From a plasmid: a DNA stretch of 64,000 nucleotides. The position numbers and the translations under genes were made by a program. Below the pieces are notes generated by a model that had not been told where the DNA came from, did not search any database, and saw only the letters and a program-made list of their open reading frames with translations. Below, one piece after another: positions 13,649-58,215 of the stretch; the stretch's first letter is position 1, and every line of letters starts with the position of its first letter. Where the stretch lies: sequence record NZ_LR134463.1, one strand, 5' to 3'.

Positions 13649-13663
13649 ACAGGTGCGTAACCG

Positions 13664-14565: not shown

Positions 14566-14583
14566 CGGGGGTGGCCGTGCATC

Positions 14584-14609
14584 ACTAATGGAAATGATTA
14601 CTATTAGTG
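14584..14609. promoter_or_regulatory. Zur-box-like AT-rich palindrome CACTAATGGAAATGATTACTATTAGTG overlapping start of COG0523 gene
   Basis: Only strongly AT-rich stretch for kilobases; inverted repeat CACTAAT/ATTAGTG flanking TAATGGAAATGATTACTATTA, about 17/21 to actinobacterial Zur box TAATGAAAATGATTTTCATTA; downstream gene is a COG0523 zinc metallochaperone-type GTPase. Confidence 0.45.
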
Positions 14610-36835: not shown

Positions 36836-38088
36836 GCGACGGGTGGAACAACGAGCGCGCCGATCCGGTGGCGATCGGCGGGCAGCGCACCACCCGCGCG
36901 GAGCGGCGACGCGCCGCGCAGCGGGAGCGGATCAAGCGCCGGCGCCGGGTGGCTCTGCTGTCGCTGATCGTGGTCTTCCTGGTCGTCATCGGCGGCGTGC
37001 TGTGGACGGTGCGCGGCTCCCTGTTCGGCGGCGGCTCCGCGCCCGAGGACTACGCCTCCGGCCAGGCGGGCCCCGAGGTCGTGGTCCACATCGTCGGCCA
37101 GAACAATTCCGACTTCGCGCAGAACCTCGTGGATGCGGGCGTGGTGAAGTCCGTGGGCGCGTTCAATCAGGCCGCGGGTGACAAGCCGATCTCCGCGGGC
37201 TACTACGAGCTGCGCAAGTCGCTGCCCGCGTCGGAGGTCGTCACCATGCTGGTGGACCCGGCGCGCTCGCACCGCGTGGGCATGCTCAACGTCTCGGCCG
37301 GCGCGGTCCTCGACGACAAGCGCAGCAAGGACAACAAGGTCGCCCAGGGCATCTTCAGCCAGCTCTCCGCCGCGACCGCGCACACCGTCGACGGTGTGAA
37401 GAAGCAGACCCCGAAGGCCGACTTCGTCCGGGTCGCCTCCAGCGCGAGCGTCGCCGACCTGGGCATCCCCGAGTGGGCCGCCGCCACCGTCACCCGGCTC
37501 AAGGGCGACCACCGCCGCATCGAGGGGCTCATCGCGCCGGGCATCTGGGACCAGATCGACCCGTCGGGCACGCCCATCGGCATCCTCAAGCAGCTCATCA
37601 CGGCGTCGGCGAAGCAGTACGAGGCGCAGGGCCTGCTGACCGCGAGCCGCACGTCGCCGGCGAAGCTCGCGCCGTATCAGGTGCTGGTGTCGGCGTCGAT
37701 CGTGGAGCGCGAGGTCAACCAGGCCGACGACTACCCGAAGGTCGCCCGCGTGATCCTCAACCGGCTCGCCAAGGACCAGAAGCTGGAGATGGACTCGACG
37801 GTCAACTACGGCGAGGCCGTCACCGGCATCGACGTCGCCGGCGAGAAGCTGCTCAAGAAGACCGAGTGGAACACCTACGCCAAGACGGGCCTGCCCGCGA
37901 CGCCCATCGGCGCCGTCGGCACGGATGCGTTGGTCGCCACCGAGAACCCGGCCCCCGGTCCGTGGCTGTACTTCGTCACCGTCGACAACAAGGGCACCAC
38001 GCTGTTCACCGACGACTTCGCGCAGCACGAGCGCAACCGGCAGAAGGCGTGCGACACCAAGTTCCTGACGGTGGGCTGCGGGCCGTGA
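36832..38088 (+). CDS. mltG: endolytic murein transglycosylase MltG (YceG-like)
   Basis: N-terminal TM, YceG domain '[25 protein letters not shown]'; GTGA overlap with ruvX. Confidence 0.8.
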
Positions 38089-38900
38089 TCCGGCGCGCCG
38101 CGGTCCTCGGAAAGCCGATCGCGCACTCGCTCTCGCCGGTCCTGCACGGTGCGGCGTTCGCCGCGCTCGGCCTCGACTGGACCTACGAGCGGATCGAGTG
38201 CGACGCGGAGGCGCTGCCCGGCCTCGTCGGCGGCTTCGGCCCCGAGTGGGTCGGCGTCTCGGTCACGATGCCCGGGAAGTTCGCGGCGCTGGAGTTCGCG
38301 GAGGAGCGCACCGAGCGCGCCGTCACCGTCGGTTCCGCCAACACCCTGGTCCGCACGGAATCGGGCTGGCTCGCCGACTGCACCGACGTCGACGGTGCCG
38401 ACGGCCTCCTGGCCGAGTGCGGCGCGACGGGGGAGTCCGCGGTCGTCGTCGGCGCGGGCGGCACGGCCCGCCCGGTGTTCGCCGCGCTCGCCGACCGGGG
38501 CTTCACCCGCACGACGGTCCTCGCCCGCTCGGAGGAGCGGGCACAGGGCGCGCTGGCCTGCGCCGAGGCGTTCGGTCTCGCCGCGGCCTGGGCGCCGCTC
38601 GCCGCTGCCGCGGTACCGCACGCCGACGTGGTGGTCTCCACGCTCCCCGGTTCCGCCCAGCCGGATGACTTCCCGTTGATGGACGCGCTGTCCTCGGCGG
38701 CCCCGGCCGTCGCCGACGTGGCCTACGATCCGTGGCCCACCCTGCTCGTGGCGGCCGCGGAGGCGAAGGGCGCTCGCACCGCGGGCGGCCTGACGATGCT
38801 GCTGCACCAGGCGTTCCGGCAAGCGGAGTGGTTCACCGGCGAGCCCGCGCCGCGCGCGGCGATGGCGGCGGCGCTCGCCGCCGCGAGGGAGGCACGATGA
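38085..38900 (+). CDS. aroE: shikimate dehydrogenase
   Basis: 'GKPIAHSLSPVLHGAAF', 'VVGAGGTARPVFAAL' Rossmann; GTGA overlap with mltG; 271 aa. Confidence 0.8.
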   Translation: MIRRAAVLGKPIAHSLSPVLHGAAFAALGLDWTYERIECDAEALPGLVGGFGPEWVGVSVTMPGKFAALEFAEERTERAVTVGSANTLVRTESGWLADCTDVDGADGLLAECGATGESAVVVGAGGTARPVFAALADRGFTRTTVLARSEERAQGALACAEAFGLAAAWAPLAAAAVPHADVVVSTLPGSAQPDDFPLMDALSSAAPAVADVAYDPWPTLLVAAAEAKGARTAGGLTMLLHQAFRQAEWFTGEPAPRAAMAAALAAAREAR

Positions 38901-39310
38901 GTACCGACTTCCGCTACCGGTTCCGGCCGCGGTACTACGAGATCGACCGCCAGGGCGTCATGTTCAACATGTGGTACCTCGGCTACGTCGACACGGCGAT
39001 CGGCGAGTTCTACGCCGACCGCGGCACGCCCTACGAGGCGATGCTCGCGGCCGGCTACGACTCGCAGGTGGTGCACGTCGAGCTCGACTACGCGGCGGGC
39101 CTGACCGACGAGGGCGACACCGAGCTGGTCATGCGGACCGGCCGGATCGGCACGAAGAGCTTCACGATCGAGTTCGTCTTCGTCACCGACCTCGACGCCG
39201 ACGAGCCGACCGAGGCCGTCGCCGGCCGGATCGTGTACGCCGTGATCGCCGCCGACGGCTCGGGCGCCATCCCGATCCCCGATGCGCTGCGCGAGGCCCT
39301 GCAGGCCTGA
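38897..39310 (+). CDS. acyl-CoA thioesterase (hotdog fold, 4HBT/YbgC-like)
   Basis: 137 aa 'YRFRPRYYEIDRQGVMFNMWYLGYVD' typical thioesterase N-terminus; ATGA overlap with aroE. Confidence 0.7.
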   Translation: MSTDFRYRFRPRYYEIDRQGVMFNMWYLGYVDTAIGEFYADRGTPYEAMLAAGYDSQVVHVELDYAAGLTDEGDTELVMRTGRIGTKSFTIEFVFVTDLDADEPTEAVAGRIVYAVIAADGSGAIPIPDALREALQA

Positions 39311-39322
39311 CACACTGACCCC

Positions 39323-39742
39323 GTGGAGTGGGGGCTCTTCGGGGGTGCGTTCTTGGCGTGGTGCGCCGCGCTGTGCTGGTTCGACGTGCGTGAGCGGCGG
39401 CTCCCGAACGTCCTGACCCTGCCCGCGGTGTGCGTCGCCCTCGGCGTCTCGCTCTGGGCGGTGTTCGACGGTGCGCCCGCCCCGTTGGTCGGGTTGACGC
39501 TCTGGACGGCGGTGAACGGCACGGCCTTCCTCGCCCGCGGAATGGGTGCCGGCGATGTGAAGCTGGCGCCGACGCTCGGCGCCGTGGCGGCCGGGGCGGG
39601 TGGGGTGCCGGCGGCGCTCCTCGCCGTCCTCGGGGCCCAGTTCCTCACGCTGGCGTGGGCGCTCGTCGCCCGCGACCGCACGGTGCCGCACGGCCCCGCG
39701 ATGATCGCCGCGACTCTCGCTGTGGCGGCGTCGACCGCGTGA
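39323..39742 (+). CDS. prepilin peptidase-like (A24 family, TadV/CpaA-type) membrane protein
   Basis: 'ARGMGAGDVKL' catalytic-Asp motif of A24 peptidases; 139 aa, 4 TM. Confidence 0.6.
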   Translation: MEWGLFGGAFLAWCAALCWFDVRERRLPNVLTLPAVCVALGVSLWAVFDGAPAPLVGLTLWTAVNGTAFLARGMGAGDVKLAPTLGAVAAGAGGVPAALLAVLGAQFLTLAWALVARDRTVPHGPAMIAATLAVAASTA

Positions 39743-40219
39743 TCAGGGCGTGGTGAGCCTGCGCAGAAGGCCGTCGAGGGTGTGGAGTTCGGCGTCGGTC
39801 AACGCGGAGAGCAGATCGCGCTCGCGGCGAATGTGCCCGGGGAGGAGTCGTTCGATGAGCCCTCGGCCCGCTTCGGTGAGCGTCACCGTCTTCCCTCGGC
39901 CGTCGGTCGGGCTCGGGGTCCGTGCGACGAGACCGGCGCTCTCAAGCCGATCGAGACGCGAGGTGAGGCCGGCGCGGGTGATGAGCAGCTGGTCGGCGAG
40001 GGCCGCAGGGGCGAGGGCATAGGGCGGGCCGGAGCGGCGGAGGGTCGCGAGCACGTCGAACTCACCGCGACGGAGTCCTTCGTCCTCCAGCGGTCCTTCG
40101 ATCGCGGCGCGGCCGGCCGCCTCGAGGTGCGCGAGGCGGCCGACGATGCTCATCGGCAACGTGTCGAGGTCGGGGTACTCGGTGCGCCACTGGGCCATGG
40201 CGGCGTCGACGTCATGCAC
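39743..40219 (-). CDS. MarR-family transcriptional regulator
   Basis: wHTH 'GEFDVLATLRRSGPPYALAPAALADQLLITRAGLTSRLDRLESAGLV'; divergent from cupin gene. Confidence 0.8.
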   Translation of the reverse strand: MHDVDAAMAQWRTEYPDLDTLPMSIVGRLAHLEAAGRAAIEGPLEDEGLRRGEFDVLATLRRSGPPYALAPAALADQLLITRAGLTSRLDRLESAGLVARTPSPTDGRGKTVTLTEAGRGLIERLLPGHIRRERDLLSALTDAELHTLDGLLRRLTTP

Positions 40220-40244: not shown

Positions 40245-40284
40245 GTAGTTCGAGGGTGAACTATATAGTTAGAAGTCGAACTAC
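40245..40284. promoter_or_regulatory. Nested palindromic operator in MarR//cupin divergent promoter
   Basis: GTAGTTCGA-gggtg-AACTATATAGTT-agaag-TCGAACTAC: perfect 9-bp outer inverted repeat around a perfect 12-bp palindrome; TTGAC -35-like at 40236; GGAGG SD at 40288. Confidence 0.45.
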
Positions 40285-40296
40285 ATTGGAGGCGTC

Positions 40297-40785
40297 ATGA
40301 TCGTTCGGAATCCGGAACTCGTCGGCGAGGCGTCGGGGCCGCAGGTCGCGTTGTTCGCGGACGCGTCGGCCACAGGGGAGACGGCGAGCGTGCAACGCGT
40401 GCACCTTCCAGCGGGCGCCGACGGCGCCTCACCCCATTTCCACACCCGGTCCACCGAGCTCTTCTACGTCCTCGACGGCGCCCTCGACATGCTGGTCGGC
40501 GAGGAGCTCGTCGCCGTCGAGGCGGGTGGCCTCGCGGTGATCCCACCGAACACGGTGCACGCCTTCGCCGCCGGACCCGCGGTTCCGGCGACCGCGCTCA
40601 TCGTCCTGACGCCCGGCGTCGAGCGCTTCGGCTACTTCCGGCTGCTGCGCGACGTCGCGACCGGGGCGGCGGCACCGTCGGACCTGGTCGCGGCCCAGGA
40701 TCAGTACGACAACCACTTCGTCGACAGCCCGCTCTGGCGTGAGCGTCCCCGCGGCGGACGGACGATTCCCTTGGATCCACGGTGA
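40297..40785 (+). CDS. cupin-domain protein
   Basis: 'VQRVHLPAGADGASPHFHTRSTELFYVLDGALDMLVGEE...IPPNTVHAF' cupin metal motifs. Confidence 0.7.
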   Translation: MIVRNPELVGEASGPQVALFADASATGETASVQRVHLPAGADGASPHFHTRSTELFYVLDGALDMLVGEELVAVEAGGLAVIPPNTVHAFAAGPAVPATALIVLTPGVERFGYFRLLRDVATGAAAPSDLVAAQDQYDNHFVDSPLWRERPRGGRTIPLDPR

Positions 40786-40830
40786 GCGCAAGGGGTCACA
40801 GACGAATCCGCGCCGCCTACCGTCGAATCC

Positions 40831-41925
40831 GTGACCGAATCGACCTCACGCCCTGTCCTCGGGATCGCCCTGGAGCCGTTCGGCTGGCATCCCGCAGCGT
40901 TCGCGGAGGTCGGCGCGGATCCACTGGAGGCCACCTCCGCGGAGCACTGGGTTGGGCTGGCCCGCTCCGCGGAGGCGGCTGCCGCCGACCTCGTGACCTT
41001 CGAGGACTCATTCTCGCTGACCGCCCGCGACCGCCTCACCGGCCGGTTCGACGCCACGCTCCTCGCCGCGCGCGTCGCGCCCGCGGTCCCGCGGATCGGC
41101 CTGGTCCCCACCGTGACCGCCACGCACACCGAGCCCTTCCACGCCTCGAAGGCCATCGCGACGCTGGACTACGTCAGTGGCGGCCGCGCCGGGGTGCTTC
41201 CCGCGACGACGGGCGCCGCCGCGGATGCGGCCCTGTTCGGCCGTAAGCAGCCGCAGGACCCGGTTTCTCGCGCCGCAGAGGCCCGTGAGTACGTCGAAGT
41301 GCTGCGCGACCTCTGGGACAGCTGGGAGGACGACGCGATCGTCAAGGACGTCGCCACCGGCCGGTTCGTCGATCGGGACCGCCTGCACTACATCGACTTC
41401 CAGGGCGAGAACTTCTCCGTCAAGGGGCCGTCGATCACGCCGCGCCCGCCGCAGGGTCGGCCGCCGGTGATCGTCCGCGTCACGGACGCCGCCGCGGAGG
41501 CCGTCGCCGCCGATGCGGACGTCGCGATCGTTCCGGCCGCGGCCGACGAGGACCTCGCCGACACTGCGCGACGGCTCCGTGCCGCCGGCGTCCCGCTGCT
41601 CCTCGTCGATGTCACCGTCCACCTCGCCGACTCCGAGCGGACTGCGCAGCGCCGTATCGAGAAGCTGGATCGCCGCGAGCCCGCGGACGACGACACGCTC
41701 GTCTTCGCGGGGACGGGGGAGTCGTTGGCGCGCACCGTCTCCGGGTGGCAGTCCCTCGGCTTCGACGGTGCGCGGCTCCGTCCCGGCGTCAACGCCGTCG
41801 ACCTGCCCAGGCTCCGCGCGGCCTTCGCGCCACTGCTGCCCGGCGCGCCTCGGGCGGGAACGCTCCGCGAGATCCTCGGCCTCGCACCCGCGGTCAACCG
41901 TTTCGTCGCCGTGAAGGGGGCCTGA
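40831..41925 (+). CDS. LLM-class (luciferase-like) flavin-dependent oxidoreductase
   Basis: 364 aa; TIM-barrel luciferase-like pattern; GTG start; 1-nt overlap with next gene. Confidence 0.65.
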
Positions 41926-42953
41926 TGACCGGGCTGAACGTTCTCGACCTCGCGCCCATCCCGGACGGCGGCACCCCGTCCGACGCGCTGCGCAACACGC
42001 TGGACTTGGCGCGCCGCGCCGAGGACTGGGGGTACGGCCGCTACTGGGTCGCCGAGCACCACTTCGCGCACGTGGCGAGCGCGGCTCCCGCCGTCCTCAT
42101 CGGCGAGATCCTCGCCCGCACCAACCGGATCCGCGTCGGGTCGGCGGCCGTGCTCATCGGCTTCACCACCGCCCCGGCCGTCGCCGACGCCTTCGGCGTG
42201 CTGGCCGCGCTGCACCCCGGGCGCGTGGACATCGGACTCGGCCGGACGGGGCAGCGCCTGCGGACGCCCCCGCCCGGTGCCCCCGCGCCGAACCCCGCGA
42301 TCGTCGCCGGTTACGAGCACCTCTACCACCCGAAGGCGGAGCCGCCGAGCTACACGCGGCAGGTCGAGGACGTCCTGGATCTGGTCGGCGGCACCTTCAC
42401 CGCCGACGGCCACGCCTTGCGCTCCCCGGTTGCCGAGGCGGCGGCGGATGCCCCCGTGTGGATCTTCGGCAGCAGTGCGGGGGAGAGCGCGCAGCTCGCC
42501 GGCGCCCGCGGCCTGCCCTTCGTCGCCAACTACCACGTGAGCCCCGCGACCACCCTCGAGGCGGCCCAGGCCTACCGGGACGCGTTCCGGCCCTCCGACC
42601 GCCTCGCCGCACCGCACCTTGTGGTGAGCGCCGACGTGGTCGTGGGCGACACCGACGTGCAGGCACGGGAGCTCGCCGCGGGCTTCCCGGCCTGGGTGCA
42701 CTCCATCCGGTACGGCACCGGCGCGATCGCCTACCCGCGCGACAGCGCCGCGCTCACGGACGAGGAGCGCGCCGCCGTCGCGGACCGGAGCGACACGCAG
42801 TTCGTCGGCGAACCGGGCCGCGTCGCCGACGGTCTCCGCGCACTCGTCGAGCGGACCAGCGCCGACGAGCTCGTGATCACCTCGGTCACCCACGACCACG
42901 CCGCGCGCCTGCGCAGCCACGAACTCCTCGCCAAGGAATGGGGTCTCCTGTGA
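41925..42953 (+). CDS. LLM-class flavin-dependent oxidoreductase (MsnO8/YhbW-like group)
   Basis: '[15 protein letters not shown]...[12 protein letters not shown]...[24 protein letters not shown]' canonical LLM N-terminus. Confidence 0.75.
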
Positions 42954-44290
42954 CGATCGACCGCACCGACGTCCCCGTCCGGGAGGGCTTGCACCGCAAG
43001 CCGATCCACCTGGCCGCGCACTTCCCGGGCGTCAACCACAACACCGTGTGGTCGGACCCCGCGGCGCGCAGCCAGGTGGAGTTCGAGTCGTTCGTGTACC
43101 TCGCCCGGGCCGCCGAGCGCGCCAAGTTCGACTTCTTCTTCCTCGCCGAGGGGCTGCGGCTGCGGGAGCACCTCGGGCGCATCCACGACCTCGACGTGGT
43201 CGGCCGACCCGATACGTTCACTGTGCTCACCGCGCTCGCCGCCGTCACCGACCGCATCGGCCTCGCAGGCACCATCAACACGACCTTCAACGAGCCCTTC
43301 GACGTGGCACGACAGTTCGCCACCCTCGACCACCTCAGCGGCGGCCGCGCCGCGTGGAACATGGTGACCAGCTCCGACGCCTTCACCGGCGAGAACTTCC
43401 GCCGCGGGGGCTACCTCGCCCACGCCGACCGGTACCACCGGGCCGACGAATTCGTCACCGTCGCGCGGAAGTTCTGGGACGGCTGGGATCGCGGCGACGT
43501 CGTCCACCACGGCACACAGTTCGACGTGCGGGGCGCGGCACCGTTGCCACCGTCGCCGCAGGGACATCCGGTCCTGCTGCAGGCGGGCGACTCCGGCGAG
43601 GGGCGCGACTTCGCCGCGGCGCAGGCGGACGCGATCTTCACCCGCCACGGCTCGCTCGAGAGCGGCCGTGCGTTCTACGCCGACGTCAAGCGCCGGGCCG
43701 CCGACCGCGGCCGGAACCCGGATCACCTCAAGGTCTTTCCCGGCGCCGCCGCCGTCGTCGGCGACACGACCGCCGAGGCGCAGGAGAAGGCCCACGACAT
43801 CCGACGCCGGCAGGTGAGCCCACAGACCGCGCTGAACTTCCTCGAGCAGGTGTGGGGCAGGGAGCTGCAGTCCTTCGATCCCGACGGTCCGCTGCCCGAC
43901 GTCGAGCCCGTGTACGACGCACCGGCGGTGCAGGGCCGCGTGCTGCACGCGGATCCGCGCGAGATAGTCGCGACGTACCGCGAGCGCGCCGAGGCGGGCG
44001 GACTCTCCATCCGCGAGCTCGTGATCGAGCTCAACACCCGGCCCCAGTTCGTGGGCACGGCCCAGCAGGTGGCCGACGAGATCGACACGTACATCCAGGC
44101 GGACGCCGCGGACGGCTTCATCCTGGTGCCGCACCTCACGCCCACGGGCCTCGACGAGTTCATCGACGGCGTCGTGCCGTTGCTGCAGGAGCGCGGTGCG
44201 TTCCGGACCGAGTACGCGGGAACCACCCTCCGCGATCACCTCGGCCTGCCCGTCCCGGAGACCGCGAGCGGAGTGCAGCGCGCCGGTTAG
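42950..44290 (+). CDS. NtaA/SnaA/DszA-family FMN-dependent monooxygenase
   Basis: 'FFFLAEG...INTTFNEPFDVARQFATLDHLSGGRAAWNMVTS' family signature; GTG 42950 overlaps upstream stop (alt ATG 42938). Confidence 0.75.
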   Translation: MTIDRTDVPVREGLHRKPIHLAAHFPGVNHNTVWSDPAARSQVEFESFVYLARAAERAKFDFFFLAEGLRLREHLGRIHDLDVVGRPDTFTVLTALAAVTDRIGLAGTINTTFNEPFDVARQFATLDHLSGGRAAWNMVTSSDAFTGENFRRGGYLAHADRYHRADEFVTVARKFWDGWDRGDVVHHGTQFDVRGAAPLPPSPQGHPVLLQAGDSGEGRDFAAAQADAIFTRHGSLESGRAFYADVKRRAADRGRNPDHLKVFPGAAAVVGDTTAEAQEKAHDIRRRQVSPQTALNFLEQVWGRELQSFDPDGPLPDVEPVYDAPAVQGRVLHADPREIVATYRERAEAGGLSIRELVIELNTRPQFVGTAQQVADEIDTYIQADAADGFILVPHLTPTGLDEFIDGVVPLLQERGAFRTEYAGTTLRDHLGLPVPETASGVQRAG

Positions 44291-44345
44291 CGCATCTTCA
44301 CTCGTTCGCGGCGCGCGCCCGGTGAGAACCGGTTACCGTGCGGCC

Positions 44346-45971
44346 ATGAGCCGTGCGATGCGCCCTGACTTGTCCGGTGTCGACCCCCTCGTGGTCAACC
44401 TCACCCACCGCGTGTGCCTGGGCGATCTGCCCACGCGCGCCGCCCGTTCCTTCGGCGATCGCGTCGCGCTCGTCGACGGCGGCGCGACGGTCACCTATCG
44501 CGAGCTGGAGAGCCGCTCGAACGCCCTCGCACGGGGCCTGCAGGCGCGCGGCTACCAGCGCGGCGACGCGATCGCCCTGCAACTGCAGAACCGCTGGGAG
44601 TTCGTGGTCTCCCTGTTCGCGTGCGCGAAGCTCGGCGTCGTCGCGATGCCGCTCAACCTCCTGCTCGGCCCCGGCGACGTCGCCTACCAGCTCGGCGACA
44701 GCGGCGTCCGCGCCGTCATCACCGAGGACGTCTTCGCGCCCGCGCTCACCGCGGCCCTCGACGCCGCCGACCACCGGGTCGAGGCCGTCTACATCGTGGC
44801 CAACGGTGGCGGCGCGCTCCCCGCCGAGGTGGGCGGCGTCCCGTCGACCGCCTTCACCGATCTGCCCGACGCGGACGACTCCGTCGTGGAATCCATCGTC
44901 GAGGACCGCGACATCCTGCACTGCCTGTACACCTCGGGGACCACGGCACGGCCCAAGGGCGTCGTCACCAGCCATGTCGCGGTGCACATCTCGGCGCTCT
45001 CGTCCGCGGTCGCGCTGGGCGTGCGGCCCGACGTGCAGCCCGCGGTCCAGCCCATCGCGCTCCCGCTGTTCCACGTGACCGCCCTCGACGCGCTCCTCAT
45101 GCCGATGCTCGTCACCGGCGGCACCGCAGTCCTCCTGCGCGGCTTCGATCCGGCCGCGCTCGCGGGTGCCTTCGTCGACCACCGGGTCACCCACCTGACG
45201 CTGCTGCCCATGATGTGGGCGGCCCTGCTCACCCGCCCCGAGCTCACCGACGAGAACACCGCGTCGCTGCGCACGGGTCTCTACGCGATGGCGCCCATGC
45301 CGGCCGAACTGCTCACCGCGCTGCGGGCCCGATTCCCCGGCGCCGCGATCATCCTCGGTTCCGGGCAGACCGAGACCACGCCGGCCTCGGAGGTGCAGTG
45401 GACCGGCCACCAGGGGGTCAAGGACGACTCCTGGGGCCCGGCCACCGTCTCCACCGACGTCGCGATCATGGGCGACGACGGTGCGCTGCTCCCTCCGGGC
45501 GAGGTCGGCGAGATCGTCTACCGCGCACCGCAGCTCATGGAGGGCTACTGGAACAACGCCGCGGCGAACACGGAGGCGTTCGCGCACGGCTGGTTCCACG
45601 GCGGGGATATCGGCTACCTCGACGACGAGGGCGTCGTCTACTTCACCGACCGCGCCAAGGACATCATCAAATCGGGCGGCGAGAACGTCTCCTCGGTGGA
45701 GGTCGAGCGCGTCCTGCTCGGCCACGACGCCGTCGCCGAGGTCGCCGTCGTCGGCACCCCGCACGAGCACTGGGGCGAGGCCGTCACCGCCTTCGTCGTG
45801 ACGTCACCGTCGGGCGACGCCGATGGTGTCGCCCTCCTCGAGTACGCACGGCAGAACCTGGCGGGGTTCAAGGCGCCCAAGGAGATCGTCTTCGTCGACG
45901 CGCTCCCCAAGACCGCCACCGGCAAGATCCAGAAGAACCTGGTCCGCACGCTGCGCGAGACCCGGACCTAG
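44346..45971 (+). CDS. acyl-CoA synthetase / AMP-dependent ligase
   Basis: AMP-binding 'LYTSGTTARPKGV', 'GYWNN...FHGGDIGYLDDEG', 'TATGKIQK'; start at ATG 44346 (alt 44358). Confidence 0.8.
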   Translation: MSRAMRPDLSGVDPLVVNLTHRVCLGDLPTRAARSFGDRVALVDGGATVTYRELESRSNALARGLQARGYQRGDAIALQLQNRWEFVVSLFACAKLGVVAMPLNLLLGPGDVAYQLGDSGVRAVITEDVFAPALTAALDAADHRVEAVYIVANGGGALPAEVGGVPSTAFTDLPDADDSVVESIVEDRDILHCLYTSGTTARPKGVVTSHVAVHISALSSAVALGVRPDVQPAVQPIALPLFHVTALDALLMPMLVTGGTAVLLRGFDPAALAGAFVDHRVTHLTLLPMMWAALLTRPELTDENTASLRTGLYAMAPMPAELLTALRARFPGAAIILGSGQTETTPASEVQWTGHQGVKDDSWGPATVSTDVAIMGDDGALLPPGEVGEIVYRAPQLMEGYWNNAAANTEAFAHGWFHGGDIGYLDDEGVVYFTDRAKDIIKSGGENVSSVEVERVLLGHDAVAEVAVVGTPHEHWGEAVTAFVVTSPSGDADGVALLEYARQNLAGFKAPKEIVFVDALPKTATGKIQKNLVRTLRETRT

Positions 45972-45976
45972 CCCGT

Positions 45977-46987
45977 CTAGGCCGCCGACGACAGGGCGGG
46001 CAGCAGTCCGCGCGCGTCGGTGAGGATCTGCTCGTAGTCCCGGACGTCGAACTCGTACGGCAGCTCCAGACGGAACTCGGTGACCGGCCCGGATTCCGGG
46101 GAGAACGCCGGGTCGGCGGCGAGCCGTTCGGCGATCTCCGCGATCGGCCCCACGAGATCCTCGGCGAACAGGGTGCGTTTCTCGCCGTGCGCCGTCAGCG
46201 TGCGGTCGTGGCGCGACCGCACGTACTCGCGGTACCGCGCGACGGTGGCGCGGTCGGCGCTGTCCGTCGGCACGATCACCCGGCCGACGGCGACCCGTTT
46301 GCCGGCCCCGCCCGCGGCGCGGTAGGCGTCGACGAGCGTGGCCTGGACCGTACCGAAGTCATCGGAGTCGATGCCCGCTGCCGAGACGATGTTGCCGGTC
46401 AGCAGGTGCAGGCCGGCCTCGCCGGTCCACCGCGACGAGCCGAGCGACGTTCCGCCGTACCAGGAGCGGTCCGCCAGGCCGGGGGTGTGCGGCTGCAGCC
46501 GGGGCCGCTGTACGTTGCCGGGGGACTCGATCCGCGCGTCCTCGCCGCCGAGGAACGCGCCGCGCAGGTGCTCGACGGTGCGTGCGACCCGCGCGTGGCC
46601 GAGTTCGTACGCGCGCCAGTCACCGTCGAAGACCACGTCCGCGAGCAGGTCGGCGTGCGGCATCCCGGTGGAGAACCCCGGCTGCAGCCTGCCGCGGGAG
46701 AGCGCGTCCGCGAGCGATAGGTCCTCGGCCAAGCGGAACGGGTTCTCGTAGCCGATCGGGATGACCGCGGTGCCCAGCTCGATCGTGGACGTGCGCTGCG
46801 ACGCCGCCCCGAGGAAGACCGCCGCGGAGGAGATACCGTGCTCCAGGTGGCGCTGCCGCACCCAGGCGCCGCGGTACCCCAGGCCCTCGCCGAACGCGAT
46901 GAGGCGCAGCGTGTCCTCGAGCCCGGCAGCCGGATCCGCGTCGAGGTAGTTGCCCGGCGTGAGGAAGGCGAGCGACTCGATCGTCAC
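45977..46987 (-). CDS. LLM-class flavin-dependent oxidoreductase
   Basis: 336 aa luciferase-like; first gene of minus-strand operon with ABC transporter. Confidence 0.7.
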   Translation of the reverse strand: MTIESLAFLTPGNYLDADPAAGLEDTLRLIAFGEGLGYRGAWVRQRHLEHGISSAAVFLGAASQRTSTIELGTAVIPIGYENPFRLAEDLSLADALSRGRLQPGFSTGMPHADLLADVVFDGDWRAYELGHARVARTVEHLRGAFLGGEDARIESPGNVQRPRLQPHTPGLADRSWYGGTSLGSSRWTGEAGLHLLTGNIVSAAGIDSDDFGTVQATLVDAYRAAGGAGKRVAVGRVIVPTDSADRATVARYREYVRSRHDRTLTAHGEKRTLFAEDLVGPIAEIAERLAADPAFSPESGPVTEFRLELPYEFDVRDYEQILTDARGLLPALSSAA

Positions 46988-46990
46988 CGG

Positions 46991-47908
46991 TCAGAACCCC
47001 GCGGTCGGGTTGATCTCGGACTTCGGCAGTGCCGAGGTCGGGACCTTCCACTTCTCGAACAGCTTCTGGTACTCGCCCCGTGCGATGAGGGTGTTGATCG
47101 CCTGCGAGATCGCGGGCGCGATCGGAGACCCCTTCGCCGTCACGAAACCGACCACGGTGGTGGAGTACTCGCCGAGGAACTTCGTACCGGGCACCTTGTC
47201 CACCAGGTACCGCAGGGAGAGCGTCGGGCCGAAGTACGCGTCCACCTTGTTGTTCTGCAGGCTGAGGATGATGGCGCCCTGGTCGTCCAGGTACTGGACG
47301 GTGTACGCGGGCTTGCCCTTCGACGTGCACTGGTCGACGCCCTTCTCCAGGATCTGCTGGAAGGTGGTGCCCGAGCCCGTGACGATCTTCTTGCCGCACA
47401 GGTCCTCCAGCGTCTTCACGCTCGTGAGGCCGGAGTTCGACGAGCCGACGAAGGACTGGCCGTCGTTGAGGTACGTCGCGAAGTCGACGACCTCGAGGCG
47501 CGGCTTGGTGACGCCGAAGTTGCCCTGGCCCACCTGGTACCGGCCGTTCTGCACCCCCGGGATGATCGTGGAGAAGGTCCCGATCTCCTGCTTCCAGGAC
47601 ACGCCGAGGGCCTTCGCCACCGCGTTTCGGAGATCCACGTCGAGGCCCACCGGGTTGCCGTCGGGGACCTCGCCGCCGTGCGGCAGGTTGTTGATGCCGG
47701 GCTGGCGAGTGAGCCCCAGAGTCAGCTCCTTCGTGCCGGCCGGCAGGAGGGCCTGCGCGGCGGGGTCGACGGCGACGGACGACACCACGTCCTGCGTCGG
47801 GATCGGGTAGCCGGAGCTCTCGGCCGCCGGATCGGACGAGCCGCCGCACGCCGCGAGGACGGTGGCGGCGGCGATCAGGGGCAGGGCGAGCAGAGCGCGG
47901 CTGCGCAT
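46991..47908 (-). CDS. ABC transporter substrate-binding lipoprotein (polar amino acid, family 3)
   Basis: Lipobox 'LAACGG'; SBP_bac_3-like. Confidence 0.8.
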   Translation of the reverse strand: MRSRALLALPLIAAATVLAACGGSSDPAAESSGYPIPTQDVVSSVAVDPAAQALLPAGTKELTLGLTRQPGINNLPHGGEVPDGNPVGLDVDLRNAVAKALGVSWKQEIGTFSTIIPGVQNGRYQVGQGNFGVTKPRLEVVDFATYLNDGQSFVGSSNSGLTSVKTLEDLCGKKIVTGSGTTFQQILEKGVDQCTSKGKPAYTVQYLDDQGAIILSLQNNKVDAYFGPTLSLRYLVDKVPGTKFLGEYSTTVVGFVTAKGSPIAPAISQAINTLIARGEYQKLFEKWKVPTSALPKSEINPTAGF

Positions 47909-47951
47909 GGGGTCTCCTTGGACTCGGGTCTAGCGATGGACTAGCGGTGGT

Positions 47952-48722
47952 TCAGCGCACGGCCGCGAGGAATTCGCGGGTGCGGGAGTGCTCGGCGTCG
48001 GCGAAGATCGCCTCGGGCCGGCCGGTCTCGACGATGCGGCCGTCGTCCATGAAGATCACGGTGTCGGCGACGTCGCGGGCGAAACCGATCTCGTGCGTCA
48101 CCACGACGAGGGTCATACCCGACTCGGCGAGGTCGCGGATCACGGCCAGCACCTCGCCGACCAGCTCCGGGTCCAGTGCCGAGGTGGGCTCGTCGAAGAG
48201 CACCACGTCGGGTCGCATGGCCAGCGTGCGGGCGATCGCGACCCGCTGCTGCTGGCCGCCTGAGAGCTGCGACGGGTACGCCTTCTCGCGGCCCGCGAGG
48301 CCGACGCGCGCGAGGAGCTCGCGCCCGCGCTCGGCCGCCTCGCCGGGGGAGACGCCGGTCGCGAGCTGACCCTCCGTGAGGTTCTCCAGGACGGTGAAGT
48401 GTGGGAAAAGGTTGAACTGCTGGAAGACCATCCCGATGCGGCGGCGCTGGCGCGCCACGTCGCGGGGGTGCAGCTCGCGCAGCACGGTCGCGTCGCCGCG
48501 GTGGCCGCCCTCGCGGTAGCCGATCAGGTCGTCGTTCACCCGGACGTAGCCGGCGTCGGGGCGTTCCAGGTGGTTGATGCAGCGGAGCAGCGTCGACTTC
48601 CCGGACCCGGAGGGCCCGAGAACGATGGCGACCTCGCCCTGCGCGACGTCCAGGTCGACGCCGCGCAGCACCTCGGTGCCGCCGAAGGACTTCCGGAGCC
48701 CGCGCACCTCGATCGCGCTCAT
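47952..48722 (-). CDS. ABC transporter ATP-binding protein (polar amino acid type)
   Basis: Walker A 'GPSGSGKST', signature '[13 protein letters not shown]', Walker B '[12 protein letters not shown]'; 256 aa (ORF-track 521 aa is read-through). Confidence 0.85.
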
Positions 48723-49693
48723 CCGCGGTCTCCCGCGGTGCGGACGCTGCGGGGGAGCCGGGGGCGCAGGCGGGCCGCGTCGGCGAGGACCTCGCGGAAG
48801 GGGCGGGCGTCCCGTCGGCCCCGGTTGAACCGGCGCTCGATGAAGTACTGGCCCACGGCCAGGACGGAGGTGATCACGATGTACCAGATGGTCGCCACCA
48901 GCAGCAGCGGCATCACCTTGAAGTTCTGGTTGTAGACCAACTGCACCGAGTACAGCAGGTCGGTCACGGCGATGACGCTGACCAGCGACGTGGACTTGAG
49001 CAGCCCGATCAGCAAATTGCCGGACGCGGGGATGATGGCCGGCATCGCCTGGGGCAGCACGATGCGGCGGAAGATGCGGCGCGGGCTCAGGCCCAGCGAC
49101 CGGGCGGCCTCCGTCTGGCCCGGATCCACCGAGACCAGCCCGCCGCGCACGATCTCCGCGGCGAACGCGGCCACGTCGATGGTCAGCGCGATGAACGCCG
49201 CGACCAGCCCGCTGATGAGGTGCGTGGTGTTGACCGTGACGAACTCGGGGCCGAAGGGGATGCCCAGCGACAGTTGCGGGTACAGCGACGCGAGCTGGAA
49301 CCAGAAGAGCAGCAGGACCAGAGGTGGCACCGACCGCACCAGCCAGACGAAGACGAAGGACACCGTCTGGAGGACGGGACCGCCCCACAGCCGCATCGCC
49401 GCGAGGCCGATGCCGAGGACGAAACCGGCGGCGAAGGTGACCGCCGTGAGCCACAGCGTGAGCCAGAGCCCCTTGAGAATCGCGGTCTGCGTGAAGTAGT
49501 GGGCGACGGTGGGCCACTCGAAGCGCTCATTGGTGACCAGGGTGTGCAGGAGCATCGCGCCGAGGATTGCCACGACCGCGGCGGCCAGCCAGCGCCCGGG
49601 GCGGCGGCGCGGCACCAGGCGCACCGGTGCCGTCGAGGTATCCGCTGGCGGGCCCTGCGTGGCCCGCGACGGGGAGAGGATCGTTGTCGCCAT
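48719..49693 (-). CDS. ABC transporter permease (amino-acid type, BPD_transp_1)
   Basis: '[28 protein letters not shown]' EAA loop; ATGA overlap with ATPase. Confidence 0.8.
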
Positions 49694-49735: not shown

Positions 49736-50416
49736 TCAATCGCCCTGACCGGATGCGGCGATCCCGGAATCGAAGGCGTACCGCACGGCGTGCGCACGGT
49801 CCCGGAGCTGCGCCTTCGCGAACAGATTGTTGATGTGCGTCTTCACCGTCGACTCGCTGACGAACAGCCGCGCGGCGATGTCGCGGTTGGTCAGGCCGTC
49901 GGCGATGAGTCGCAGCACCTCGGTCTCGCGGGGCGTCAGGTCGGCGGGCGGCACGTCCGGCGGGGCCGACGGTGCCGGCCCGGCTCCGGTGCCCCCGGTC
50001 GCCGACGCGAGAAGGCGCCGCTGCACCTGCGGGTCGAGCACCGACTGTCCCGCGGCGGCAGCCATGATCGCTGCGGCGATCTCCGTCCGCCCCGCGTTCT
50101 TGGTGAGATAGCCACGGGCACCCGCCTGGAGGCCGCGGAGGATCGACTCCTCGTCGTCGAACGTGGTGAGCAGCACGACGGCGGTGTCCGGTGCGTCGGC
50201 GAGGACGCGCTCCGTGGCGCCGGCACCGTCGAGGTTCGGCATCCGCAGGTCGGTGAGCAGCACGTCGGGGCGGTGCTCCCGCACCAGGGCGACCGCCTCG
50301 ACCCCGTCGGCGGCGGCCCCGACCACCGCGATCCCGGGCATCAGGTCGAGCATCGCGGCGAGCGCCTCGCGTACCGCGGCCTGATCGTCTGCGACCACCA
50401 CTCGGATGTCGTTCAC
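49736..50416 (-). CDS. LuxR/NarL-family response regulator
   Basis: REC 'IRVVVADDQ...DVLLTDLRMPNLDG', C-terminal HTH 'LTPRETEVLRLIADGLTNRDIAARLFVSESTVKTH'. Confidence 0.85.
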   Translation of the reverse strand: MNDIRVVVADDQAAVREALAAMLDLMPGIAVVGAAADGVEAVALVREHRPDVLLTDLRMPNLDGAGATERVLADAPDTAVVLLTTFDDEESILRGLQAGARGYLTKNAGRTEIAAAIMAAAAGQSVLDPQVQRRLLASATGGTGAGPAPSAPPDVPPADLTPRETEVLRLIADGLTNRDIAARLFVSESTVKTHINNLFAKAQLRDRAHAVRYAFDSGIAASGQGD

Positions 50417-51619
50417 TCACAGCTCCTTGATCGGATCGGACGGGCGGGGCAGGACCAGGCGGACCGCCCAGCCGCCGTCGCCGGTCGGCCCGGCGTACAG
50501 CGTGCCGCCGACCTCGGCCGCGCGCTCGCGCATGCCGATGAGGCCCATGCCGGAGCCGGGAACGCCGCTCGCCGTACCCGGTCCGTTCCCGACGGTGAGC
50601 TCGGCACCGTCGGGCACGGGGAAGAGGCGGACCGTGACGGGCGCGCCCGCGGCGTACCGTCGGGCGTTCGTGACGGCCTCCTGCGCGACCCGCAGGACCG
50701 CCCGGGCCTGCGCGTCCGTCAGCTCGACCGGCCCGGTCTCCACCGTCTCGTCGGGCCCGTCCGCGAGAGCGGCGAGCGTCGTCGGCAGGTCGACGGTGTC
50801 CTCCCGCAGCGCATGGACGGCGCCTCGGGCCTCGGTGACCCCGTCCGCGATCGCGCCGCGGGCGCGCTGGACGGCGGCGCGGGCGTCGTCGGGGCGGTTC
50901 GCCTCCAGGAGGGCATCGGCGAGCTCGAGCTGCATCCCCGCGCCGGAAAGGGTGTGGGCGAGGACGTCGTGCAGGTCGCGGGCGATGCGGGCGCGTTCGG
51001 CGAGCGCGCTGCTCCGCGACTCGGACTCCGCGGTCAACTTCGTCTGTTCCACGAGCTGTTCGAGCGCCCGAGTGCGCTCGCGGCGGCTGCGACCCGCGAT
51101 GCCGGCCCACACCGTCGCGGTGACCGAGACGCCGATCCAGATCGCGTTGAAATCGATGGGGCCGGAGAGCGCCGCGGTCGCGGTGACGCTGGCCCCGGCG
51201 AGCACCGCGAGCGGGACCGAGATACGTGCCGGGAACACGGCTCCCAGGTGCACCGTCGAGACGTAGAGCAGGACACCGAGCGCGCCGTTCGGCTGGAGCG
51301 CGAACAGGATGCCGGCGGCGACCACCGTCGCCGCCTCGGTCGCGACCCGCGCGGGAAGCGGGACCCGGTCCTCTGGAAGGCACCGGACGACGACGCCGGC
51401 CGCGGCGATCGCGAACAGGACGGCGGTCCACGGGCTGTCGCGGTGGAAGTCGAGGGTCGCGCCGGCGACCACGACGCCGGCCACCGCGATGACGAGCGTG
51501 ATCCTCGTCCGCAAGCCGTCCACCACCTCGTCATGATGGCACGCGATCGTGCGCCGTGCTTCCGACCCGCCCGTCGTTAGGCGGACCAGGCGATTCGCGA
51601 TGGCTAACATCGGGTGCAT
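50417..51619 (-). CDS. sensor histidine kinase (HisKA_3/NarX-type, multi-TM N-terminus with no large extracellular domain)
   Basis: H-box 'DLHDVLAHTLS', HATPase_c 'GMGLIGMRERA'; 5-6 N-terminal TM helices. Confidence 0.8.
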   Translation of the reverse strand: MHPMLAIANRLVRLTTGGSEARRTIACHHDEVVDGLRTRITLVIAVAGVVVAGATLDFHRDSPWTAVLFAIAAAGVVVRCLPEDRVPLPARVATEAATVVAAGILFALQPNGALGVLLYVSTVHLGAVFPARISVPLAVLAGASVTATAALSGPIDFNAIWIGVSVTATVWAGIAGRSRRERTRALEQLVEQTKLTAESESRSSALAERARIARDLHDVLAHTLSGAGMQLELADALLEANRPDDARAAVQRARGAIADGVTEARGAVHALREDTVDLPTTLAALADGPDETVETGPVELTDAQARAVLRVAQEAVTNARRYAAGAPVTVRLFPVPDGAELTVGNGPGTASGVPGSGMGLIGMRERAAEVGGTLYAGPTGDGGWAVRLVLPRPSDPIKEL

Positions 51620-52052
51620 GCGCGTGATCCTGACCCTGGCGGCCCTCGCGGCCGTCTCCGCGGGTGCGTGGTTCGCCTTCCTCGGGTGGGATCAGGAGTA
51701 CTACGAGGTCGACGGTGTCGCGCAGGGCCCGTACCGGCCGTGGCAGGTGATCGCGTGCGGCGCCGTGATCGTCCTCGCCTGCACCGCGGCGTTCTGCTAT
51801 CTGCGGCGCGTCTGGCTGCTGGCGGTGATCCCCGTGGTCGCGGTCGTCGCCTTCGCGGTGCCGTGGGCGGCGTGGGCATCGCAGGACGACACCGGACTGT
51901 GGGTGGTGGGCCTGCTGTTGCTGCTGGTGGGCGGGACAATGGGGCTGACCGCCTGGCTGGCGGTGGGGTACGGCGTCGTCGAGGCGATCCGCGCGTTCCG
52001 GCGCCGGCGCACCGTGACCAGGGCCCGGTCGGGTCCAGGGCCAGGACGGTGA
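51618..52052 (+). CDS. small hypothetical membrane protein
   Basis: ~145 aa, 4 hydrophobic segments; start uncertain (ATG 51600 or 51618); divergent from HK. Confidence 0.4.
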   Translation: MRVILTLAALAAVSAGAWFAFLGWDQEYYEVDGVAQGPYRPWQVIACGAVIVLACTAAFCYLRRVWLLAVIPVVAVVAFAVPWAAWASQDDTGLWVVGLLLLLVGGTMGLTAWLAVGYGVVEAIRAFRRRRTVTRARSGPGPGR

Positions 52053-52429
52053 CGGTGCGACCCGGCCTGCGCGCGGCGCTCGTTCTCGCCGGACTCGCCG
52101 CGACCGTGACGGTGCTCGCGATCGGCCTGGTGGCCCTGCCCGACGGGGCCCTGTCGATCGCGTGCACGATCGCGATCCTCTCGGCGGCGGCCGGCGCGCA
52201 GGTCCTGCTCGGCCGGGCGTGGGGCGTCGCCGCCCTCCCCGTGGTGACCGCGGCCGCGATGCTCGTGCCGATGATGATCGACGCGGCGGGCGAGCCCGCG
52301 GCGCACATGTGGCCGGTGGCCGTGATCGGAGTGATCGTCTTCCTGATCCCGGCCCTGATCTGCTTCCTCGCGGCGGTCCACTGGCTTGCCGGGGTGGCGC
52401 GCCGGGAGCGCGCGCGACGGGCGGGGTGA
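52049..52429 (+). CDS. small hypothetical membrane protein
   Basis: 126 aa from GTG overlapping upstream stop (GTGA); 3-4 TM. Confidence 0.4.
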   Translation: MTVRPGLRAALVLAGLAATVTVLAIGLVALPDGALSIACTIAILSAAAGAQVLLGRAWGVAALPVVTAAAMLVPMMIDAAGEPAAHMWPVAVIGVIVFLIPALICFLAAVHWLAGVARRERARRAG

Positions 52430-54769: not shown

Positions 54770-55201
54770 ATGCAGATCAGCGAGACCCTGACGCCCGCCG
54801 TCGTCGACTTCCTCTCCGCCGGAACGCGGACCGGCAACCTCGCCTACCTCGCCGGCGACGGGCGCCCGCTCACGACGCCGGTCTGGTTCGTCATCGACGA
54901 CGGTGCTCTCGTCTTCGCGACGGGGCGGGACACCCCGAAGGGACGCCTGCTGGCGAAGGACCCGCGGGTGGCGCTTTCCGTCGACCTGCAGGAGCCGCCC
55001 TACGCGTTCGCACAGGTGCAGGGCATCGCGGAACTCGTCGACGACCCCGACTACCTACTGAAGGTCTGTACCGCGTGCGGTGTCCGGTACATGGGTGCCG
55101 AGCGGGGCGAGGAGTTCGGTCGGCGCAACGCCGTCCCCGAGGAGATCGTCGTGCGGGTGCGCCCGACGCGCGTCCTGTTCAACGGCGACGTCACCGCCTG
55201 A
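54770..55201 (+). CDS. PPOX-class F420-dependent / pyridoxamine-5'-phosphate-oxidase-family protein
   Basis: 143 aa split-barrel pattern 'GNLAYLAGDGRPLTTPVWFVIDDGALVFATG...PRVALSVD'. Confidence 0.7.
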   Translation: MQISETLTPAVVDFLSAGTRTGNLAYLAGDGRPLTTPVWFVIDDGALVFATGRDTPKGRLLAKDPRVALSVDLQEPPYAFAQVQGIAELVDDPDYLLKVCTACGVRYMGAERGEEFGRRNAVPEEIVVRVRPTRVLFNGDVTA

Positions 55202-58159: not shown

Positions 58160-58215
58160 AGGCGTTAGGTTCTCACAAAGCAACCGCTTAGCGACAGGGT
58201 GCCCGAGGATTGTGG

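Follow-up and report, generated by a model that had tools for sequence, protein, structure and literature searches.

In Bacillus subtilis, S-modified cysteines are acetylated, taken apart by monooxygenases and deacetylated by the products of gene clusters (PMC12757645), and the breakdown of S-alkylcysteines in this organism involves the pair CmoO/CmoJ (PMC10863075). The clusters compared here are ytmI-ytn (TcyJKLMN, CmoO, CmoJ), scm/yxe (ScmL, ScmK, ScmP) and yha, which serve the salvage of S-alkylcysteine or S-(2-succino)cysteine. A further described system is NtfO1-NtfO2, a crystallographic heterodimer of a short, lid-less luciferase-like monooxygenase (LLM) and an LLM of the NtaA family that binds flavin mononucleotide (FMN) (PDB 7E36; PMC8027225). 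Here we analyse a block of eight genes, G1 to G8, in which four LLMs stand beside an importer. It spans positions 40831-49693, its two ends being the starts of G1 and G8, in a 64,000-nucleotide stretch of the plasmid record NZ_LR134463.1, which we call the window. The block resolves into two conserved units, the translationally coupled genes G1-G2-G3 and the genes G8-G7-G6-G5. We consider it fairly probable that these two neighbouring units together recover sulfur from an amino-acid-like organosulfur compound that the cell imports, at times when inorganic sulfur is in short supply.

Gene content of the block

The genes of the window, whose GC content is about 72%, were called from third-position GC (GC3 frame analysis) and checked against Pfam and NCBIfam. 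The block consists of the following genes (ABC, ATP-binding cassette; CoA, coenzyme A; FMNH2, reduced FMN).

G1, 40831-41925, plus strand: short NtaA-like LLM of 364 aa (Pfam Bac_luciferase)
G2, 41925-42953, plus strand: MsnO8-family (group-1) LLM (TIGR03558, 274.6 bits)
G3, 42950-44290, plus strand: NtaA/DmoA-family FMNH2-dependent monooxygenase of 446 aa (TIGR03860, 406.9 bits)
G4, about 44346-45971, plus strand: AMP-dependent acyl-CoA ligase (AMP-binding and AMP-binding_C)
G5, 45977-46987, minus strand: LLM (Pfam Bac_luciferase), last gene of the importer operon
G6, 46991-47908, minus strand: family-3 solute-binding lipoprotein of the polar-amino-acid type (SBP_bac_3)
G7, 47952-48722, minus strand: ABC ATPase (ABC_tran; best NCBIfam match TcyN)
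G8, 48719-49693, minus strand: ABC permease (BPD_transp_1), first gene of the minus-strand operon

An initial annotation of this DNA, made without database searches, had listed four LLMs, an acyl-CoA ligase and a polar-amino-acid ABC importer, and both this inventory and its coordinates were confirmed by GC3, Pfam and NCBIfam. The NtaA/DszA-family monooxygenase that it placed on the plus strand is G3, which passes TIGR03860 over model positions 9-422 of 422 (cut-off 279.7). Its count of two group-1 LLMs holds for G2, which matches TIGR03558 over the full length and above the cut-off of 166.95, and fails for G1, a short NtaA-like protein that scores 170.7 bits with TIGR03860, below the family cut-off, and aligns with model positions 2-254 only. 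Neither G1 nor G5 is a group-1 LLM by TIGR03558, with which G5 scores 31.5 bits. For G4, no equivalog model in NCBIfam was matched at or above its cut-off. The importer is related to several amino acid transporters: G7 scores 334.5 bits with the L-cystine ATPase TcyN, under the cut-off of 406, and the best matches of G8 are cystine, EhuC and GlnP permeases, each under its own cut-off. The N-terminus of G6, MRSRALLALPLIAAATVLAAC, is a signal peptide with a lipobox-like LAAC.

The genes are tightly packed. G1 and G2 overlap by 1 nt, the ATG of G2 lying on the stop codon of G1, while the overlaps of G2/G3 (GTGA) and of G8/G7 are 4 nt each; the gap between G6 and G5 is 3 bp, and the convergent genes G4 and G5 leave 5 bp between their stop codons. 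None of the window genes scanned has a Flavin_Reduct or FMN_red domain, and hence none is an adjacent partner of the NtaB/EmoB type, which bears out the previous statement that no flavin reductase is encoded locally. A PNPOx-like gene downstream of the block, at 54770-55201, was considered as the missing flavin reductase and rejected, as it encodes an F420-dependent PPOX-class protein.

Comparison with described systems

Among the sequences of the PDB, the closest relatives of G3 were CmoJ/YtnJ (283 bits), 3sdo (263 bits), which is an uncharacterised Burkholderia "NTA monooxygenase", NtfO2 (260 bits, 4.6e-76) and DszA/BdsA (252 bits). LadA (187 bits), DmoA (176 bits), EmoA (163 bits) and the group of SsuD, MsuD and SfnG (62-69 bits) were more distant. 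The alignment of G3 with CmoJ is broken into two local segments, and G3 is a family-level relative only. The best PDB match of G2 was MsnO8 (4us5, 2.2e-41).

Like the Bacillus clusters, the block has a polar-amino-acid ABC importer beside FMNH2-dependent LLMs, a second, smaller LLM, and a flavin reductase that is not linked to it; an NtaA/DszA-family enzyme is again the probable C-S-cleaving step, with CmoJ as the best solved match to G3. In addition, an N-acetyltransferase precedes mycobacterial versions of the G1-G2-G3 triad, as in M. abscessus, and the corresponding Streptomyces genes, matching the acetylate-then-disassemble logic of B. subtilis (PMC12757645, PMC10863075). Unlike the Bacillus clusters, the window contains no acetyltransferase, deacetylase or thioredoxin-like reductase, and the block has a third, lid-less LLM (G1) as well as a fourth one that is tied to the importer (G5).

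The combination of a short, lid-less LLM with a full-length, FMN-binding LLM of the NtaA family is also that of NtfO1-NtfO2 and StmO1-StmO2, and G1 keeps the side loop that the G3 of Tsukamurella is without. The NtfO1/O2 pair hydroxylates a polyketide within a biosynthetic cluster, whereas the context here is that of an importer and of sulfur metabolism, G2 lies between G1 and G3, and the complementarity of the side loops is not universal among G3 orthologues. A further group, the two-component monooxygenase systems induced by sulfate starvation, comprises SsuD/SsuE, MsuD, SfnG, DszA/DszD and the ssu/seu genes of Corynebacterium glutamicum, whose oxygenases free sulfur from organosulfur compounds. 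With this group the block shares FMNH2-dependent LLMs and ABC importers, a separate reductase and sulfur-poor proteins. It differs from the Ssu/Tau systems in that its importer is of the polar-amino-acid type and that the reductase is absent from the block except for an FMN_red-like gene in Tsukamurella sp. 8F. The likeness to NtaA-NtaB and EmoA-EmoB is that G3 passes the NtaA/DmoA model; the difference is that an NtaB/EmoB partner is missing and that EmoA matches G3 less well than the C-S-cleaving relatives do.

Cysteine and methionine are nearly absent from the four LLMs

G1, G2, G3 and G5 together contain 2 Cys+Met in 1481 residues, compared with 2.02% in the 38 other proteins of the window (binomial P=3.9e-11 for two or fewer). 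Initiator methionines were left out of these counts, so that G1 contributes 363 aa, G2 338 aa, G3 445 aa and G5 335 aa. G1 and G2 have no cysteine and no internal methionine, and G3 and G5 have no cysteine and one methionine each. The content of the ligase G4, with 13 Cys+Met (2.4%), is normal.

The depletion is shared by relatives. Orthologues in the 80 related loci described below have Cys+Met contents of 0.22% (G1), 0.48% (G5), 0.78% (G3) and 0.98% (G2), as against 1.9% for alaS and 2.8% for ilvA; in the top 120 database homologues of each protein the values are 0.24% for G1, 0.31% for G5 and 0.70% for G3. The copies in Streptomyces, Amycolatopsis, Gordonia and Nocardia are depleted as well. 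Such proteins are rare otherwise: among the 585 further proteins in these loci that are 300 aa or longer, 17 have at most one Cys+Met, 16 of the 17 stand at the G1 position and are G1 orthologues, and once these are set aside the count is 1 of 569. The depletion is not a trait of the family or the fold, because a second LLM of the MsnO8 family, located 13 kb downstream (56027-57085, 416 bits), has a normal sulfur content with 9 methionines and 2.6% Cys+Met.

When cells starve for an element, the proteins that they express tend to contain little of it (PMC2932507, citing Baudouin-Cornu 2001, Mazel and Marlière 1989 and Fauchon 2002). Given the near-absence of cysteine and methionine, we take the four LLMs to be proteins that would be made when sulfur is limiting. 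Their composition is strong evidence, at the level of sequence, for synthesis under sulfur limitation, and it is from this that we infer the induction itself.

Conservation of the block in Tsukamurella

The genes had been described at first as an accessory island. A synteny map, obtained by tblastn over 80 loci fetched around G3 relatives, does not bear this out. G3 matches a Tsukamurella tyrosinosolvens protein with 100% identity and its orthologues in a dozen other Tsukamurella species with 85-96%, and in 12 of 12 core Tsukamurella species the gene order is alaS-ruvX-mltG-thioesterase-pilD-[variable slot]-G1-G2-G3-(G4)-G5-G6-G7-G8-response regulator-histidine kinase-ilvA. The base composition of the block does not deviate from its surroundings, its GC being 0.718 compared with 0.720 on each flank, and its GC3 of 0.90-0.96 is equal to that of the housekeeping genes alaS and relA. 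There is no tRNA gene in the window, and no integrase or transposase domain or other mobility gene was found among the scanned genes around the block. The same block was found at this position in each of the 12 close Tsukamurella species sampled, an outcome that the initial annotation had itself named as a refutation, and it has flank-like GC and no tRNA or mobility genes. The accessory reading therefore fails: the block is kept throughout the genus Tsukamurella and is no island peculiar to one strain. It lies elsewhere in the deep-branching T. sp. 8F and T. soli, beside cobN and acyl-CoA dehydrogenase genes, and there lacks the adjacent two-component system that adjoins it in the 12 core loci.

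Two parts of the neighbourhood do vary. The MarR and cupin genes in the slot between pilD and G1 occur only in the window and in 3 of 12 related loci (L005, L006 and, in part, L012). In other species the slot holds nothing or unrelated genes; in L003, L004, L007, L009 and L011 the prepilin peptidase gene directly abuts G1. The MarR/cupin pair is a variable insert. The ligase G4, likewise, is a lineage-specific insert outside the conserved core. It stands at the convergent G3/G5 junction in most species and is missing in L003, L014, L016 and L024, which comprise T. asaccharolytica, T. sp. 8F, T. soli and one contig of a metagenome-assembled genome (MAG). CoA activation, which the initial annotation had counted as part of the system, was discarded on these grounds, the ligase being missing in four related blocks and normal in sulfur content.

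The convergent junction is an insertion hot spot. T. asaccharolytica (L003) has nothing there, L002 and L011 have an extra 0.7 kb (about 13000-13730), and T. sp. 8F (L014, 11371-14437) has a hydrolase, a TetR, a MarR and an FMN_red/Flavodoxin_2 reductase-like gene. The presence of the last gene inside the block of T. sp. 8F is consistent with a two-component flavin system. The MAG contig (L016, CAJCHX010000329.1), which is 13.6 kb long and labelled Acidobacteriaceae bacterium, carries cobN-G1-G2-G3-G5-G6 with 59-73% protein identity to Tsukamurella, in an arrangement like that of T. sp. 8F. Mis-binning of an actinobacterial contig is the probable cause, transfer the other possibility.

Spread and context of the two units

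The order G1-G2-G3 is kept in 74 of the 78 loci with enough upstream sequence, which belong to Tsukamurella, Mycobacterium, Mycolicibacterium and Mycobacteroides, and the triads of M. abscessus and M. avium have the same gene overlaps of 1-4 nt. Short G1-like LLMs of about 48-50% identity are widespread in Actinobacteria next to G3-like genes. The two genes are directly adjacent in Amycolatopsis, where there is no G2, and Streptomyces has the order GNAT-G1-G3-G2 with a G2-like protein 48.5% identical to G2. Homologues of G5 that are 65-79% identical occur in Gordonia, Nocardia, Streptomyces and Actinomadura. In one Streptomyces an Opp-type ABC importer is followed by G5, and Gordonia soli has permease-ATPase-SBP_bac_3-G5 as a stand-alone operon, so the importer and G5 form a unit of their own.

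Several neighbours in relatives point to amino acid and sulfur metabolism. In M. avium subsp. paratuberculosis the triad comes right after a gene of the PALP family and one with hexapeptide repeats, which we read as cysK and cysE, giving cysK-cysE-G1-G2-G3. M. abscessus has the operon permease-ATPase-SBP_bac_3-GNAT acetyltransferase-G1-G2-G3, with a pyridoxal phosphate enzyme of Cys/Met metabolism close by. A family of 164-residue proteins lies at most 7 kb from the G3 orthologue in 53 of the 80 loci. Its members are found just upstream of G1, where M. abscessus has the Pfam-confirmed GNAT, and the likeness to GNAT is one of position. An N-acetylcysteine deacetylase (M20 amidohydrolase) was found neither in the window nor in the M. 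abscessus or M. avium loci. The metallo-beta-lactamase (MBL), LLM, pta and ackA genes beside the mycobacterial triad were considered as parts of the system and rejected as ordinary flank, which we take to be that of Rv0406c-fgd1-pta-ackA.

A candidate G1-G3 heterodimer

The PDB sequences most similar to G1 were 3sdo (6.9e-36, over the N-terminal 250 residues) and NtfO1 (7e36_A, 5.9e-32). In an alignment of G1 and G3 orthologues, G1 is without the insertion of 75-88 residues that forms the lid region of G3, and it keeps a "side loop" (WDSWEDDA...GRF.DRD.LHYIDF). AlphaFold2 models G1 with confidence as a complete TIM barrel (predicted local distance difference test 85.7, predicted template modelling score 0.87). 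The closest folds in a search with this model were NtaA/DszA-family enzymes, and NtfO1 ranked 22nd while having the highest identity, 30%. Because of this structural rank, the link between G1 and NtfO1 rests on the sequence and the missing lid and not on fold ranking.

The residues of NtfO2 that contact FMN, taken from PMC8027225, were mapped onto G3 through the G3-NtfO2 alignment. G3 keeps all eight equivalents, namely T133, H151, Y155, Q203, F56, A58, T101 and F222 in NtfO2 numbering. At the corresponding positions G1 orthologues have P, L or V for H151, R or A for Q203, T for F56, E for A58 and A, L, F or Y for Y155. The substitutions H151A and F56A almost abolish the activity of NtfO2 (PMC8027225). 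As judged from these alignments, G1 is a lid-less LLM with a degenerate FMN site. The order of the triad in 74 of 78 loci, the gene overlaps and the Amycolatopsis pair that does without G2 lend indirect support to a pairing of G1 with G3. By analogy with NtfO1-NtfO2, we see a roughly even chance that the two form a heterodimer in which G1 would be the non-FMN partner subunit.

Proposed function and alternative explanations

We propose that in the unit G8-G7-G6-G5 the importer, with its lipoprotein binding protein, would bring in the substrate, on which the LLM G5 would act. The unit G1-G2-G3 would then be a coupled trio of FMNH2-dependent LLMs, in which G3 would be the catalytic enzyme of the NtaA/DszA type that cleaves a C-S bond, G2 could perform a separate oxygenation, for example of a thioether to a sulfoxide as CmoO does, and G1 might be the partner of G3, in the way of NtfO1 and NtfO2. 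A flavin reductase encoded elsewhere would supply reduced FMN. The ligase G4 and the MarR/cupin pair would be later insertions that are dispensable for the sulfur function. For the substrate we infer an S-substituted cysteine or a mercapturate-like compound, on the same footing as the division of labour among the LLMs. Desulfurisation fits because of the cysteine and methionine depletion, the linkage to cysK-cysE in M. avium, the importer and N-acetyltransferase genes of M. abscessus, and the position of CmoJ as the closest solved relative of G3. The initial annotation had suggested catabolism or desulfurisation of an N- or S-substituted carboxylate. Our results retain from this the desulfurisation of an S-substituted, amino-acid-like compound and speak against an aminopolycarboxylate, EmoA scoring 163 bits where CmoJ scores 283.

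A number of observations weigh against this proposal. G3 is about equally distant from CmoJ, 3sdo, NtfO2 and DszA, and with scores of 283-252 bits to four different enzymes homology does not fix the substrate. The binding protein G6 has no specific match, reaching 46 bits with the cystine-binding type and 89 bits with the Lys/Arg/Orn type, and the importer proteins are just mildly sulfur-poor (P=0.10). The N-acetyltransferase (GNAT) and the deacetylase that define the Bacillus pathways were not found in the window. The pairing of G1 with G3 meets two further difficulties. The side loop of G3, deleted in Tsukamurella and reduced in length in M. abscessus, is still present in the orthologues from M. 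avium, Streptomyces and Amycolatopsis. Moreover, G1 has the family-invariant histidines H20, H99, H104 and H186 (in GWHP, THTEPFH and LHYIDF), which G3 lacks at the aligned positions, so G1 may have its own activity or a ligand- or substrate-binding role and not be a passive partner.

Sulfur could instead be obtained from sulfonates, sulfonate esters or sulfones, as it is by C. glutamicum seuABC/ssu or Pseudomonas sfn/msu, and not from S-substituted amino acids. The sulfur-poor composition would fit such a role equally well, and G3 is related to DszA/BdsA at the family level (252 bits). Three adjacent seu genes of C. glutamicum, which belongs to the same order, encode Dsz-like monooxygenases that need an unlinked reductase. 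NtaA-annotated proteins accumulate in Rhodococcus IGTS8 during growth on dibenzothiophene (PMC8557817), with no established link to G3. The importer is, however, of the polar-amino-acid type (TcyN-, GlnP- and EhuC-like) and not SsuABC or TauABC, relatives link the triad to an N-acetyltransferase and to cysK-cysE and not to ssu genes, and SsuD, MsuD and SfnG score no more than 62-69 bits with G3. We therefore regard the use of sulfonates and related compounds as unlikely. Catabolism of an aminopolycarboxylate resembling nitrilotriacetate (NTA) or ethylenediaminetetraacetate (EDTA), or of some other N-substituted carboxylate, for nitrogen or carbon agrees with the membership of G3 in the NtaA/DmoA family and with an importer of the amino acid type. 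It would leave the conserved near-absence of cysteine and methionine unexplained, and it has to contend with a linkage to cysK-cysE that indicates sulfur, with the lack of both an NtaB/EmoB reductase and an iminodiacetate oxidase, and with a score of just 163 bits for EmoA against 283 for CmoJ. We hold this explanation to be very improbable.

The position of the ligase, chained behind G3, could mean that G4 feeds the LLMs by CoA activation in the oxidation of carboxylic or fatty acids or of xenobiotics. A role in the tailoring of a secondary metabolite, as for NtfO1/O2 and MsnO8, could also be considered, the polyketide epoxidase MsnO8 being the best solved relative of G2 and the G1/G3 pair resembling the polyketide hydroxylase NtfO1/O2. 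Against these possibilities, the ligase is absent in four related blocks and is not sulfur-poor, the 64-kb window contains no polyketide synthase, nonribosomal peptide synthetase or other biosynthetic genes, and the triad is kept in core-genome contexts of dozens of mycobacteria, beside importers. Both roles, taken together, thus appear quite improbable.

Returning to sulfur salvage from S-substituted amino acids, a more far-reaching form of the proposal can be put forward, one that we hold tentatively and with more doubt than belief. G1 and G3 would constitute an unrecognised heterodimeric, C-S-cleaving class of flavin monooxygenases for sulfur starvation, one subunit of which would be a lid-less LLM unable to bind FMN. 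Many Actinobacteria, M. abscessus and M. avium among them, would have this enzyme together with G2, and it would free the sulfur of cysteine from S-alkylcysteines or from the mercapturic acids of mycothiol detoxification; the G5-type LLMs in importer operons would be a second, independent salvage family. If the proposed function is correct, many genes annotated just as "LLM class flavin-dependent oxidoreductase" would gain a role in organosulfur salvage. Tsukamurella, Streptomyces, Nocardia and Gordonia have such genes, as do many mycobacteria, among them the pathogens M. abscessus and M. avium. The heterodimer architecture of the NtfO1/O2 type would then extend from antibiotic tailoring to primary sulfur metabolism, and the putative heterodimeric LLM should interest specialists in flavoenzymes and in actinobacterial sulfur metabolism. 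The near-absence of cysteine and methionine, moreover, offers an inexpensive marker, readable from sequence alone, by which sulfur-starvation genes can be found in poorly studied high-GC bacteria.

Upstream elements

One non-coding element was delimited at the block.

40763-40830, plus strand: conserved non-coding element directly upstream of G1, its 5' end overlapping the last 23 bases of the cupin gene

An alignment of the window with 15 Tsukamurella-type loci shows that these approximately 70 bp are conserved whatever gene precedes them, and GAGCGCAA stands at -47 of G1 in the window and all 15 loci. The region reads GTCACA-N17-TACCGT-N7-GTG and is without a Shine-Dalgarno motif. Before G8, a conserved gap of 42 bp contains TACGGT-N8-ATG, in which the -10-like TACGGT lies 8 nt upstream of the ATG. 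The G1 element probably holds a promoter and an upstream operator, and we suggest that this promoter and one before G8 may be of the leaderless type. A generic sigma-70 promoter scan returned no promoter-like site, so that conservation is the sole basis of this promoter proposal; the scan gave one terminator-like site only, inside G3. An Rfam search of the window for a riboswitch or RNA leader gave no match. A hairpin in the G1 upstream element, CCCTTG...CAAGGG, was considered and rejected since the substitutions in L007 and L009 are not compensatory.

The motif CGATTCC-N-GGATC occurs upstream of both operons and at just those two sites in the window. Its copy at G8 lies within the coding sequence of the response regulator and drifts to CGAGACC in other species, and a role as a shared regulatory motif is unproven. 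The intergenic region between MarR and cupin (40245-40284) contains a three-part palindrome, formed by GTAGTTCGA at 40245-40253, AACTATATAGTT at 40259-40270 and TCGAACTAC at 40276-40284, which looks like a typical MarR operator.

Flanking genes

The block is bordered by the following genes.

38085-38900: aroE, followed by the thioesterase
38897-39310: 4HBT-type thioesterase, between aroE and the prepilin peptidase
39323-39742: prepilin peptidase (pilD), after the thioesterase
39743-40219, minus strand: MarR (Pfam), divergent from cupin
40297-40785, plus strand: cupin (Pfam)
49736-50416, minus strand: LuxR/NarL-type response regulator (Pfam), in the same orientation as the importer
50417-51619, minus strand: HisKA_3 histidine kinase (Pfam), in the same orientation as the importer

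The aroE/prepilin peptidase, MarR/cupin and LuxR-type two-component flanks reported previously were all found again, and the thioesterase, absent from that account, is an addition to them. The aroE, thioesterase and prepilin peptidase genes are chained, with 4-nt overlaps at mltG/aroE (GTGA) and aroE/thioesterase (ATGA). The first 40 kb of the window are a conserved housekeeping stretch, yajC-secDF-relA-hisS-aspS-rarA-alaS-ruvX-mltG-aroE. Downstream of the block there are ilvA and then two genes of the alpha-amylase family, which we read as treZ and treY. None of aroC, aroK and aroB lies within the window. Compared with the mycobacterial gene order, the block sits at a breakpoint between two conserved synteny segments, and it would thus be a genus-conserved feature at such a breakpoint and not a recently acquired island.

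Beyond the two-component system and the MsnO8-family paralogue there is an F420-dependent LLM of the Rv3520c family at 57119-58192. Two small open reading frames, 51549-52052 and 52049-52429, have a good coding GC3, no family match and a high Cys+Met content (4.2% and 4.8%). As the first of them runs into the 5' end annotated for the histidine kinase, the start codon of one or the other is probably wrong. Two groups of genes in the first part of the window, at 27286-31043 and 12608-15766, are unrelated to the block. They comprise a circularly permuted ATP-grasp/Alpha-E protein followed by a transglutaminase-like protein and, farther upstream, a group with a radical-SAM protein, an ArsR-type regulator and a CobW-like GTPase.

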